A stretch of 64,000 bases of DNA from Escherichia phage vB_EcoM_Lutter. Both the position numbers and the translations under genes were made by a program. The stretch lies in sequence record NC_054924.1. One strand, written 5' to 3'. Positions 6,448-9,848 of the stretch are shown piece by piece. Within the stretch, counting starts at the first letter, position 1. Every line of letters begins with the position of its first letter. The notes under the pieces were generated by a model. The model ran no database searches, was not told the DNA's origin, and saw only the letters and a program-made list of their open reading frames with translations.

Positions 6448-6658
6448 TTTATTCTCCAAGTTGTTTTCTGTATCAGTAGTTGATAGTTGTATAGTACCAT
6501 GGAAGAACAGGGATGTAAACAGTTTTGTGAAAAAATTTTTTAAAAAGTTTTGGGGAATTCTGGGGCAGGGAGGGGCAATTAAAGGATAGGATAATATATT
6601 ATAACGGGTAGAAACTAAATGATGTCTGGAGAGGCCCAGAAAGGCCTAGATGCCAAAA

Positions 6659-6682
6659 AGCCCCAATCTTTCGGTCGGGGCT
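6659..6682 (-). terminator. Stem-loop downstream of 6690..7163; near-identical copy at 7214-7237
   Basis: agccccaatctttcggtcggggct. Confidence 0.45.
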
Positions 6683-6689
6683 AAGAATG

Positions 6690-7163
6690 TTATTTGATTT
6701 GTTTAGCAGACCAAATGCGGTCTTTGATAATTTTTTGGATGTCTTCAACATACTCAAGAGAGTGAACATGTGGATTATCTTTGAAACTATGAGCTCGCGC
6801 AAGTTTCTGGCCTTCAGTTTTGATTACTAAAAGCTCTTTAAGGATAGCTTCATATTTGGAGATAATTCCTTTAACAATATTTTTCTCTTGTGCGACTTTA
6901 GGATCTGCTTTAGGAGCAGGTTTACCCGAAGCCTTTGCAAAAGCAGCGCCAGTAGCAACTAAACTTTTCCAGGCCATACTAACTGCATTTCCCGTAAATC
7001 CTTCCGCTTTCATGTCGCGTGCGAACTGGAATCGCGATTCATCAGAAGCATCTTTATAGGAATATTTACCCGCTGCAATGGCTGCTTTTGCGACAGCTTG
7101 AATTTCGGTGCTAGATGCTTCATTTAACACCGCTTCATTTAAAAATTGAGTATATGATTTCAT
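6690..7163 (-). CDS. Candidate internal (capsid-packaged) protein with capsid-targeting-like N-terminus
   Basis: 157 aa; MKSYTQFLNEAVLNEA resembles the MKTYxEFIAEA targeting sequence, with two L-x-E motifs; own late promoter at 7200-7207. Confidence 0.6.
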   Translation of the reverse strand: MKSYTQFLNEAVLNEASSTEIQAVAKAAIAAGKYSYKDASDESRFQFARDMKAEGFTGNAVSMAWKSLVATGAAFAKASGKPAPKADPKVAQEKNIVKGIISKYEAILKELLVIKTEGQKLARAHSFKDNPHVHSLEYVEDIQKIIKDRIWSAKQIK

Positions 7164-7199
7164 CTTATTTCCTGTTTTAATTTGTAGATTTAATATACT

Positions 7200-7207
7200 T
7201 ATTTATA
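7200..7207 (-). promoter_or_regulatory. Late promoter (TATAAATA) for 6690..7163
   Basis: Plus-strand tatttata, ~35 nt upstream of the ATG at 7163. Confidence 0.5.
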
Positions 7208-7213
7208 CTAAAA

Positions 7214-7237
7214 AGCCCCAACCTTTCGGCTGGGGCT
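7214..7237 (-). terminator. Intrinsic terminator (stem-loop plus U-run)
   Basis: agccccaacctttcggctggggct; minus-strand RNA is followed by UUUUU. Confidence 0.55.
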
Positions 7238-7242
7238 AAGCC

Positions 7243-7548
7243 TTGCGGCAACCTTGTCGGGGTTCCACCTGCTAAGGCAAGTGTTTGTACGAAACGCCGG
7301 GATTCGAACCCGGTTATTAAGCAGTTGACGCTACTCAATATTTTTAAAAGGCCATATCTCGACCATATCCGAACGTTCCGTCAAAAACGCTACTCGGCTT
7401 ACGGCAAAGATATTTCCTCGAATCGATAATTCTGTGCGCCGTTTCTGCTGTGATGTAAGGGGATATTAACAAATCGTAAAGATTTATTAAGACCAGTCCT
7501 TACTCAGGGAACATCAGTCCGACGTCTTGCCGGTAGCGACCCGGCTTC
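7243..7548 (-). ncRNA. Candidate small stable RNA(s) at the distal end of the tRNA cluster (tRNA-like T-arm, no canonical tRNA fold)
   Basis: About 300 nt without a credible ORF between the terminator and the next gene; minus strand has ccggguucgaaucccgg (T-arm-like); in T4 this region encodes stable RNAs C and D (recall). Confidence 0.3.
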
Positions 7549-7893
7549 TTATTTTGGCATATCATCAATTTGCTCTCGACGCCGACGCCATAGATTAATC
7601 GCTTCATTGGCACATTCTGCGTTTGGTATATGACGGCAGCAATATAATGATTCGCGTTTCTGGAACCGATGTTGCAACGGAATTTCGTTTAAAAGGTCTT
7701 TACGGTCAAAGTATTCAAAACTAGTTAACCCGGAACGGTTTTTAAGAAACTTCCAATATCCGAATTCATTTTGAAAATAGACATAATCAGCATGCTGATA
7801 CAGCGAATTAATTAACCTATCGGAAATAACAGTGTCATTGTGATTAAAATAGAATGTTAAATCATGAACTACTAAATAAACATTACCTTTCAT
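7549..7893 (-). CDS. Hypothetical protein
   Basis: 114 aa ORF with ATG start, between the tRNAs and the putative stable-RNA region. Confidence 0.5.
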   Translation of the reverse strand: MKGNVYLVVHDLTFYFNHNDTVISDRLINSLYQHADYVYFQNEFGYWKFLKNRSGLTSFEYFDRKDLLNEIPLQHRFQKRESLYCCRHIPNAECANEAINLWRRRREQIDDMPK

Positions 7894-7909
7894 ATTTTCC
7901 TCACTTAAT

Positions 7910-7985
7910 TGGTCGAGGCAGTAGGGATCGAACCTACGACCTAGGACTTAGAAGGTCCTTGCTCTTCCTTCTGAGCTATGCCTCG
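7910..7985 (-). tRNA. tRNA-Arg (anticodon UCU)
   Basis: Manual cloverleaf: acceptor cgaggca/tgcctcg, anticodon stem aggac/gtcct, loop cuUCUaa, T-loop ttcgatc, encoded CCA. Confidence 0.8.
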
Positions 7986-7989
7986 GATT

Positions 7990-8064
7990 TGGCGGACGTG
8001 ATAGGATTCGAACCTATAACCAATCGCTTAACAGGCGATCGCTCTGCCATTGAGCTACACATCC
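7990..8064 (-). tRNA. tRNA-Asn (anticodon GUU)
   Basis: Manual cloverleaf: acceptor ggatgtg/cacgtcc, anticodon stem atcgc/gcgat, loop cuGUUaa, encoded CCA. Confidence 0.7.
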
Positions 8065-8068
8065 AAAT

Positions 8069-8155
8069 TGGTGGGGAGTGATGGAGTCGAACCACCCGAG
8101 TCGCAATGACAATGGATTTACAGTCCACACCGCTACCTCTACGGGATAACTCCCC
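8069..8155 (-). tRNA. tRNA-Tyr (anticodon GUA), type II
   Basis: 87 nt; acceptor ggggagt/actcccc; anticodon loop cuGUAaa; long variable arm; encoded CCA. Confidence 0.65.
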
Positions 8156-8168
8156 TTAATTCTTAATT

Positions 8169-8243
8169 TGGTGGCCCTGGGTGGAATTGAACCACCATCT
8201 GGCGATTATGAGTCGCTTGCTTGAACCTTCCAGCTACAGGGCC
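8169..8243 (-). tRNA. tRNA with anticodon CAU (Met, or Ile if C34 is modified)
   Basis: Acceptor ggccctg/cagggcc; anticodon loop cuCAUaa; T-loop ttcaatt; encoded CCA. Confidence 0.65.
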
Positions 8244-8251
8244 AAATTTTC

Positions 8252-8734
8252 TTATTTTATGTAGTATTTATTTAAAAACTTTCTAGCTTGAGTATGGCTA
8301 ACATTTATAGCGTTTGCATAATTTTTAATAAAACCTCGTTCATCCATATTAAAATTTTCTAATATTTTTAATCGTCTAGTTATCTCATCTTGGCTTAAGG
8401 TACTTGCATTATTTTTAGAAATTTTTTCTAAAGACTGCACTGAGTGTTTTCGACCATTAAAATTAAAATTTTTAGATTTTGGAGGAAATCTATCATTTAG
8501 TCTCGCATCTTTTGTATTTTGATTATTAGTTGCGCAATATATGTTATTTAATGAGTATGGTCCTTTATCACCAAAACGACACATACAGTATTCATGACCC
8601 TTTCTTCCACGCTTATCATAATTTCCCGTTGATTTCCACCAATTCAACCACTCATCAAAAGTTAAATTCCATTCAATGTTTCTACGTATAGCAGAATTCC
8701 GCTGAGAAATATATTTTGCATAATCTTCTTTCAT
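8252..8734 (-). CDS. Hypothetical protein inside the tRNA cluster; possible degenerate homing-endonuclease-like protein with a C-terminal DNA-binding tail
   Basis: 160 aa from the ATG at 8734; RRNIEWNLTFDEW and GHEYCMCRFGDKGPYSLNN resemble HNH-family fragments; C-terminus SHTQARKFLNKYY resembles the C-terminus of the HNH protein at 9130-9738. Confidence 0.4.
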   Translation of the reverse strand: MKEDYAKYISQRNSAIRRNIEWNLTFDEWLNWWKSTGNYDKRGRKGHEYCMCRFGDKGPYSLNNIYCATNNQNTKDARLNDRFPPKSKNFNFNGRKHSVQSLEKISKNNASTLSQDEITRRLKILENFNMDERGFIKNYANAINVSHTQARKFLNKYYIK

Positions 8735-8781
8735 CACAAATTTCTCTACTTATTACATACACTAAGCTAAATCAGCAAAAC

Positions 8782-8871
8782 TGGCGGAGGCGATAGGATT
8801 TGAACCTATGAGTCGCCGGAGCGACTGCCGGTTTTCAAGACCGGTGCATTAAACCACTCTGCCACGCCTCC
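8782..8871 (-). tRNA. tRNA-Ser (anticodon UGA), type II
   Basis: 90 nt; acceptor ggaggcg/cgcctcc; anticodon stem ccggt/accgg, loop cuUGAaa; long variable arm. Confidence 0.8.
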
Positions 8872-8873
8872 AG

Positions 8874-8947
8874 TCTCCGCGGCAGGATTTGAACCTGCGA
8901 CATTCTGCTCCCAAAGCAGACGCTCTACCAAACTGAGCTACACGGAG
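8874..8947 (-). tRNA. tRNA-Pro (anticodon UGG); CCA not encoded
   Basis: Acceptor ctccgtg/cgcggag; anticodon stem tctgc/gcaga, loop uuUGGga; 2-nt spacer to tRNA-Ser (Pro-Ser dimeric precursor as in T4). Confidence 0.8.
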
Positions 8948-8957
8948 TAAATTAAAT

Positions 8958-9031
<74 letters not shown>

Positions 9032-9036
9032 AAATT

Positions 9037-9123
9037 TGGTGCGAGAAGTGGGACTCGAACCCACAAGGAAATCATTCCGCAGCATTTTAAGTGCTGTGCC
9101 TTTACCAATTTGACCATTCTCGC
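9037..9123 (-). tRNA. tRNA-Leu (anticodon UAA), type II
   Basis: 87 nt; acceptor gcgagaa/ttctcgc; anticodon stem cagca/tgctg, loop cuUAAaa; long variable arm. Confidence 0.8.
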
Positions 9124-9129
9124 GCTATA

Positions 9130-9738
9130 TTATTTATTACGTGAAAAAGACTGTTCTATCAATTCTGGACACTTTCGTTCTATCCATTTTCTAGCTTTTT
9201 GTGGGCTTATACCTATTATTTTAGCAGCTTTACTAACCCATCCAAATTTAGAATAATCGATTTTAACTAATTCTTCGTAAATTTCATCAGTTAAAATCTT
9301 TTCATTAATATTTACCAGTAAATGATATAATTTATTATCATTAGCAATTTTAATGAATCTTTTATAGTTTCCGCCTTTACTTAAACCTAATGAAGTAATT
9401 GCAGATGATATAGTAGCCGAATTTAATAGTGCGTTTAAAATTTCTTCATCACTAACATTATAACGCTTTTTATTATTTTTAATATTTTTACCAGCAAAAG
9501 TATCAGTTTGCGAATGGCAGTTTGGACATAATAATCTTAAATTTGATTTAAGATGATTTTTGTTATTTCCATCAATATGGTCTAATTGCAGAACAATATG
9601 CTTATTTTGCCATTTTGAAATTTTACAAATTGCACACTCATATGGAAAAATATTTTCTTTTATTATTTTGTCTTTCAGCTTTCCTGTACTAAAATTTGGA
9701 TGTTTTCCTTCAAAAATTTCAGCTAATTTAGTATCCAT
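9130..9738 (-). mobile_element. HNH-family homing endonuclease, free-standing, abutting tRNA-Leu
   Basis: CAICKISKW...HIVLQLDHIDGNNKNHLKSNLRLLCPNCH is a canonical HNH/zinc-finger motif; basic helix-turn-helix-like C-terminus; track start 9762 is TTG, start uncertain. Confidence 0.7.
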
Positions 9739-9848
9739 AATATGATTCCCAATTATTAACAAAGGCTCTCAAACAAGAACCCTTGATGATAGAGGGTATT
9801 AATCAGTGCGGTATGAGTTAATAATAACAAATAATTCTTAAAGCATAT

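Follow-up and report, generated by a model that had tools for sequence, protein, structure and literature searches.

The interval between positions 7243 and 7548 of the window (the whole stretch of 64,000 nucleotides of the T4-like Escherichia phage vB_EcoM_Lutter, sequence record NC_054924.1, that was analysed) is, judging from comparison with phage T4, real non-coding sequence that carries the orthologues of the T4 small RNAs rnaD and rnaC. The explanation that accounts best for all observations, and that is very probably correct as a whole, is an rnaD and rnaC pair in which rnaC folds into a four-way junction with kissing loops and would be matured by RNase P. The locus is already known, and the finding is in this respect a rediscovery of plain orthologues. 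The comparison across genera corrects the fold of rnaC that had been proposed by eye, in that it provides the true acceptor partner, a cloverleaf-like junction, and a pair of kissing loops; the resulting model, supported by covariation, is directly testable and makes an old question more tractable.

The rnaC and rnaD of T4 are small stable RNAs that have been known since the 1970s and were among the first phage non-coding RNAs to be sequenced. In the T4 reference (NC_000866), they are given as misc_RNA features distal to the tRNA cluster, with rnaD ("species 2 RNA") at 71053-71171 and rnaC ("species 1 RNA") at 70908-71046. The minus strand of the window from 7560 to 7180 aligns collinearly with this rnaD-rnaC stretch, and the interval is therefore taken as the rnaD-rnaC pair of this phage, composed of the following parts:

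7552 to 7433, minus strand: orthologue of rnaD (T4 species 2 RNA), 120 nt, 85.1% identical to T4 rnaD
7426 to 7288, minus strand: orthologue of rnaC (T4 species 1 RNA), 139 nt by the T4 annotation, identical at 137 of 139 positions (98.6%)
7238-7284, minus strand: 3' trailer of approximately 50 nt between rnaC and the terminator, with three small hairpins in the predicted fold, one of them with a GCAA loop
7237 to 7214, minus strand: intrinsic terminator of the tRNA-rnaD-rnaC unit, with a 10-bp stem (7 G-C), a GAAA loop, and a T run

A sequence-only reading of the same DNA had likened the place of the interval to the one that RNA C and RNA D take up at the far end of the tRNA cluster in T4; the alignment with the T4 region, which it had named as a check, turns this likeness of position into direct homology of both RNAs. 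It had also treated the interval as one element, which is replaced here by two RNAs and a 3' trailer. The gene order is that of T4, namely, tRNA cluster, rnaD, rnaC, and terminator on a common strand, and the trailer and terminator together share 92.8% identity with their T4 counterparts. The two phages differ in the tRNA set upstream of the rnaD-rnaC pair and in the junction itself: rnaD begins 1 nt past tRNA-Arg in T4, whereas a 114-aa ORF (phrog_3355) separates tRNA-Arg from rnaD here. A megablast search with 7150-7950 returned 727 phage records, nearly all of them T4-like phages of Escherichia, Shigella, or Yersinia, and a distant blastn search found the region in 803 phage records, some of which carry rnaC/rnaD annotations. 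In T4, both RNAs have been detected as late RNAs and confirmed by northern blot (PMC9697503). Their roles were stated to be unknown (PMC3014915), and published work lists the function of both in the same way (PMC3014915, PMC9697503, PMC12685909). A literature search that did not extend to the 2003 T4 genome review or the classic papers turned up no study of function or structure.

The likeness of the interval to tRNA does not extend to a canonical cloverleaf, as had been stated from the letters alone. ARAGORN called neither a tRNA nor a tmRNA in 7243-7548. The Rfam scan (4,227 models, region 6500-9800, E<=10) gave nothing credible in the interval, only overlaps at chance level with isrK (16.5 bits, plus strand) and anti-hemB (14.2 bits). 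The tRNA model RF00005 had no match in the interval at E<=10, while the sole match of the tmRNA-type models fell on the tRNA cluster (E=5.1) and none on rnaC, so that the covariance-model search proposed earlier, with tRNA and tmRNA models, comes out empty for the interval. Likewise, the Rfam models for C4 antisense RNA, Y RNA-like RNA, and hammerhead ribozymes had no match near the gathering score on it.

The structure of rnaC was derived by eye on a first alignment of 17 sequences and then tested. A covariance model was then built, to which 34 homologues were aligned (33 distinct, from at least nine genera of Tevenvirinae); the sequence of this phage scores 170.9 bits. Under this model, rnaC is a non-canonical cloverleaf with a four-way junction made up of an acceptor-like stem, a long P2/P3 arm, P4, and a T arm:

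7425 to 7419, minus strand: 5' strand of the acceptor-like stem, CGAUUCG, pairing with 7296 to 7290 over 7 bp
7350-7417, minus strand: long arm of P2 plus P3, 68 nt, in the place of the D arm, with covarying helices
7417 to 7403 with 7364 to 7350, minus strand: P2
7397 to 7369, minus strand: P3, with the loop UUGACG at 7379-7384
7340 to 7315, minus strand: hairpin P4 of 10 bp in the place of the anticodon arm, with the 6-nt loop CGUCAA at 7325-7330
7313 to 7297, minus strand: T arm, CCGGG-UUCGAAU-CCCGG, with a 5-bp stem
7296 to 7290, minus strand: 3' strand of the acceptor-like stem, CGUUUCG, abutting the T arm
7285-7289, minus strand: conserved tail U-N-C-A-A, 3' of the acceptor-like stem

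Across the 34 sequences, 93.1% of the pair cells hold standard pairs, a share that falls to 36-45% in controls with the partners shifted by 1-3 columns. Double-sided changes occur in 31 of 49 pairs, and none of 500 shuffles reaches the observed values; the alignment used to count the nested helices was itself fitted to the model and is biased in its favour. The minimum-energy fold of the single sequence from this phage is the same as the comparative model (-50.2 kcal/mol, z = -4.55). Double changes are found in 9 of 9 counted pairs of helix 3, 3 of 4 of helix 4, and 5 of 6 of helix 5, all within the P2/P3 arm, and in 9 of 10 pairs of P4. The T-arm-like module that had been noticed on the minus strand is confirmed at its place in the junction: its stem is paired in 99.4% of cells, with compensatory changes at two pairs (CCGGG/CCCGG, CCUGG/CCAGG, and CUUGG/CCAAG). 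The acceptor-like stem consists of C-G, G-C, R-Y, a tandem UxU, C-G, and G-C, and 72.7% of its cells are paired. Its third pair is GC in 21 sequences and AU in 12, and the fourth and fifth positions form the tandem UxU in 31 of the 33 distinct sequences and become U-A and C-G in Tegunavirus.

The tail 3' of the acceptor-like stem reads UACAA in most homologues including this phage, UUCAA in Tegunavirus, and UCCAA in Marfavirus, with one case of UACAG, and the bases beyond it vary between genera. It has the look of a relaxed N-CCA end. In the T4 annotation, rnaC ends at ...CGUA, which is not CCA-like. The Marfavirus-type tail UCCAA corresponds to an encoded U73-CCA. A separate variation is seen in the clade of Enterobacter phage MY742, where the T loop is UGCAUGC, not UUCGAAU, and the GG of the internal loop beside the base of P2 is CG. 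These two changes may be coupled in a manner reminiscent of the tRNA 18-55 and 19-56 contacts, although they stem from a single lineage.

The most distinctive element of rnaC lies in its two 6-nt loops. Those of P3 and P4 are perfectly complementary in all 34 sequences, with UUGACG/CGUCAA in 26, UUGGCG/CGCCAA in six (the Marfavirus type), and UUGAUG/CAUCAA in two (Tegunavirus). This complementarity is not a product of model fitting because both loops are unpaired in the covariance model. Their covariation indicates, as far as aligned sequences can, a kissing-loop contact between P3 and P4, either within one molecule or between two, and it consists of only two independent double substitutions, counted as lineage events. 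Looser pattern scans of viral and metagenome contigs yielded no fourth variant.

Several known RNAs share parts of this architecture. With canonical tRNA, rnaC has in common a 7-bp acceptor stem formed from the two ends and abutting a 5-bp T stem with a 7-nt UUCGAAU loop, the four-way junction, and a place in tRNA operons; it differs in having no D arm and no 7-nt anticodon loop but a 10-bp "anticodon" hairpin whose 6-nt loop pairs with another loop, and in ending with U-N-C-A-A instead of N-C-C-A. Since the 7-nt anticodon loop is missing and the loop at the anticodon position would be sequestered, rnaC is probably unable to decode. The tRNA-like domain of tmRNA is an acceptor/T-arm module made from both ends of the RNA, with a large insertion between them, and is processed by RNase P. 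The end-made module and the large insertion of rnaC resemble it, and rnaC too would be processed by RNase P; unlike tmRNA, it lacks G3-U70, a tag reading frame, and the series of pseudoknots, and it has a four-way instead of a three-way junction. The C4 RNA of P1/P7 and the CI RNA of P4 are small phage RNAs with an acceptor-like stem, maturation by host RNase P, and functional hairpin loops, which pair with mRNA targets in trans, whereas the loops of rnaC are complementary to each other; rnaC matches these RNAs neither in sequence nor through Rfam. YrlA (Rfam RF02553) is similarly non-coding and mimics part of tRNA including the T arm, but its ends form the Ro-binding stem and its acceptor-like helix is closed; the weak matches of RF02553 in the region fall on true tRNAs only and none on rnaC. 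The prohead RNA of phi29, like rnaC, has a pair of hairpin loops that stay complementary through covariation in related phages; in phi29 the pairing is intermolecular and assembles a ring on the prohead. T4 DNA packaging is not known to need an RNA.

The rnaD is less conserved than rnaC and modular, as its alignments suggest. It is composed of a 5' hairpin of the form RCCGG-GUCGCUA-CCGGY, a long irregular hairpin, and a variable apical domain, and its fold has a z-score of -3.9. The first of these is placed in the window as follows:

7529-7545, minus strand: 5' hairpin of rnaD, GCCGG-GUCGCUA-CCGGC, whose closing pair covaries (AU in nine, GC in two)

The 5' hairpin and the basal helix hardly vary, and neither do the 5' and 3' thirds of the RNA, while its apical domain falls into three unrelated types among phages. 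Covariation is weak (double changes in three pairs), and the divergence is too little for a firm structure. A hammerhead-like reading of rnaD (CUGAUG ... GAAA) was rejected, as the flanks of the two motifs pair together, which is the wrong topology, and the ribozyme models in Rfam gave no match on rnaD. When a T4-like phage was evolved on E. coli ECOR34, an identical SNP in rnaD arose in every line (PMC12685909), a hint of a role in host interaction. On the opposite strand, the complement of the rnaD 5' hairpin (7529-7545, plus strand) followed by TTCTTATTTT scores as a terminator-like site, which may be due to chance.

The distribution of the two RNAs differs. The rnaD is confined to T4-, RB69-, VR7-, and JS98-like phages. 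The rnaC was found apart from the rest of the region in more distant genera, namely, in Karamvirus (Pet-CM3-4, fGh-Ecl01, and Entb_43), Moonvirus (KM16 and NM4.3), Tegunavirus (fHe-Yen9-01), Kanagawavirus (KLB31 and Kosakonia phage 305), Marfavirus (MY02 and Marfa), and Gelderlandvirus (Melville and ABTNLPp2), as well as in Gaprivervirus (VR7), the unclassified Enterobacter phage MY742, and Citrobacter phage Ursula. It comes after tRNA-Trp in Karamvirus, Gelderlandvirus, and Ursula, and a tRNA-Gly comes after it in the first two; since it is preceded by one tRNA and succeeded by another in such genomes, it behaves as one cassette of the tRNA array. Pattern scans of IMG/VR and metagenome contigs yielded more copies of rnaC, all from the same phage group; the looser scans of viral and metagenome contigs gave no homologue outside the enterobacterial Tevenvirinae, the extra matches being chance hits or ordinary tRNAs.

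In some phages, rnaC is naturally absent. In 30 records, mostly of Dhakavirus (JS98, JS10, IME08, VR5, MX01, and others), rnaD is joined straight to the trailer through the junction sequence ...GGCGCACCGAACACTTGCC..., a precise loss of rnaC in Dhakavirus-type genomes. The trailer hairpins, conserved in T4, are retained in these phages, which offer natural controls without rnaC. A different insert occupies the rnaC spot in VR20, and in AV115 the match to the interval is limited to the trailer, beside a tRNA-Asn. From this pattern of presence and absence, rnaC and rnaD are separate modules that are dispensable in some lineages. Deletions of the T4 tRNA region are viable.

The terminator that had been assigned to the interval stands at 7237 to 7214 and, being on the minus strand, lies downstream of both RNAs. 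The T4 late-promoter motif TATAAATA does not occur on the minus strand between 7208 and 10090, and the simplest interpretation is therefore that rnaD and rnaC are co-transcribed from the promoters of the tRNA cluster. Directly past the terminator, at 7200-7207 on the minus strand, one copy of TATAAATA stands upstream of the gene at 6690-7163 (phrog_2280), and the motif is enriched within the window, with 25 copies against 9.5 expected.

In the proposed pathway, rnaD and rnaC would be read through from the tRNA-cluster promoters, after which host RNase P would cut at the 5' end of rnaC, in keeping with established knowledge of its substrates. The same cut would also release the 3' end of rnaD, and exonucleases would trim the 3' end of rnaC back to its U-N-C-A tail. 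A 12-bp stack of acceptor and T stems is sufficient as a substrate of RNase P, and rnaC has this 12-bp stack together with the T loop.

As for function, it is possible, and is put forward tentatively, that rnaC, stable and shaped like a tRNA, acts as a ligand or decoy for a host or phage protein that recognises tRNA, with rnaD as a structured co-product or partner RNA whose apical domain varies by lineage. A more specific version, held with the same reserve, is that rnaC may be the founding member of an uncurated RNA family, a tRNA mimic locked by a covarying 6-bp kissing loop and provided with a CCA-like tail, which might act as a decoy or cofactor for a host factor that recognises tRNA (e.g., a tRNA-targeting defence nuclease, RNase P, or the CCA-adding enzyme) and thereby influence host range. 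The rnaC family could enter Rfam, after which annotators would stop calling hypothetical proteins there.

It is also conceivable, though rather unlikely, that the two RNAs have no function in trans and serve as cis modules for the processing and stability of the tRNA operon, as RNase P punctuation, as protective structured 3' ends, or by defining the ends of neighbouring RNAs. The location of rnaC and rnaD within or at the end of tRNA arrays, the position of the Marfavirus rnaC approximately 20 nt upstream of a coding gene, and the tolerance of natural losses would all be in line with such modules. Punctuation, however, needs the acceptor/T module alone, yet P2/P3, P4, and the loop complementarity are kept through compensatory changes across at least nine genera; furthermore, rnaC is found both in the middle of arrays and beside terminators and is thus not tied to one processing context.

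Base-pairing regulation of host or phage mRNAs, through the A/U-rich linker of rnaC or through its loops in trans as in the C4 RNA of P1/P7, is improbable as the role of rnaC/rnaD. The two have been termed small regulatory RNAs (PMC9697503), and the linker CCUUUUAAAAAU is conserved and unpaired, which would suit such a role; the covariation of the two loops, in contrast, is best explained by their direct pairing with each other.

The acceptor-like pairing of the sequence-only reading can be placed in the same light. The 7-bp match cggaacg/cgtttcg does exist, between 7380 to 7374 and 7296 to 7290, and it forms 7 bp with one G-U in T4-type sequences, although it is not the conserved stem. In the conserved stem, cgtttcg pairs instead with CGAUUCG (7425 to 7419), located at the 5' end of rnaC, and cggaacg covers the 3' half of P3 along with two kissing-loop bases. 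That the pairing is nonetheless the acceptor stem, with the 46 nt upstream as a leader or separate element, or that it forms as an alternative conformer in T4-type phages, is highly improbable: it has no compensatory change, is broken by an AxC mismatch in 8 of 17 homologues, is precluded by the sequences of the Marfavirus, Kanagawavirus, and Gelderlandvirus versions, lies 13.3 kcal/mol above the minimum-energy fold when forced (+13.3 kcal/mol), and would abolish two covarying elements, P3b and the kissing loop. Where a G-to-A change breaks it, P3 has a U-A in place of a U-G (UA in 16 and UG in 14 at column pair 45-52).

The view that there is no convincing ORF between the terminator and the gene at 7549-7893 holds, as only ORFs of 34-53 aa with TTG or GTG starts occur within 7243-7548, overlapping the structured RNA and the terminator hairpin, and they have matches in T4 solely because the DNA is nearly identical. 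That the interval consists of decayed tRNA genes or of small protein-coding ORFs, as the presence of these frames and the "hypothetical protein" or odd tRNA calls ("tRNA-OTHER") over the region in several genome records might suggest, is scarcely credible when substitutions in the helices are compensatory and without a codon-like pattern, the ORFs run from TTG/GTG across the terminator hairpin and owe their existence to T4-like DNA, and the sequence, unlike that of a pseudogene, is maintained across genera.

Some features of the neighbouring tRNA cluster were also recorded. The 114-aa ORF (phrog_3355, 7549-7893, minus strand) lies between tRNA-Arg and rnaD, with a stop codon that overlaps the place corresponding to the 5' end of T4 rnaD; in other phages, this junction is occupied by another ORF or by a tRNA, and the site looks like a recombination hot spot. 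ARAGORN predicted eight tRNAs on the minus strand between 7910 and 9123, namely, Arg-tct, Asn, Tyr, Met, Ser, Pro, Gly, and Leu, compared with Arg, Ile, Thr, Ser, Pro, Gly, Leu, and Gln in T4. Identity to the T4 counterparts is 61% for tRNA-Arg, 98.6% for tRNA-Gly, and 100% for tRNA-Leu. The cluster is split by an ORF at 8252-8737 on the minus strand (phrog_16521, function unknown), and the T4 cluster is likewise interrupted, between tRNA-Arg and tRNA-Ile, by the homing endonuclease segB. Just upstream of the tRNA cluster, an ORF at 9130-9762 on the minus strand (phrog_14736) encodes an HNH endonuclease.
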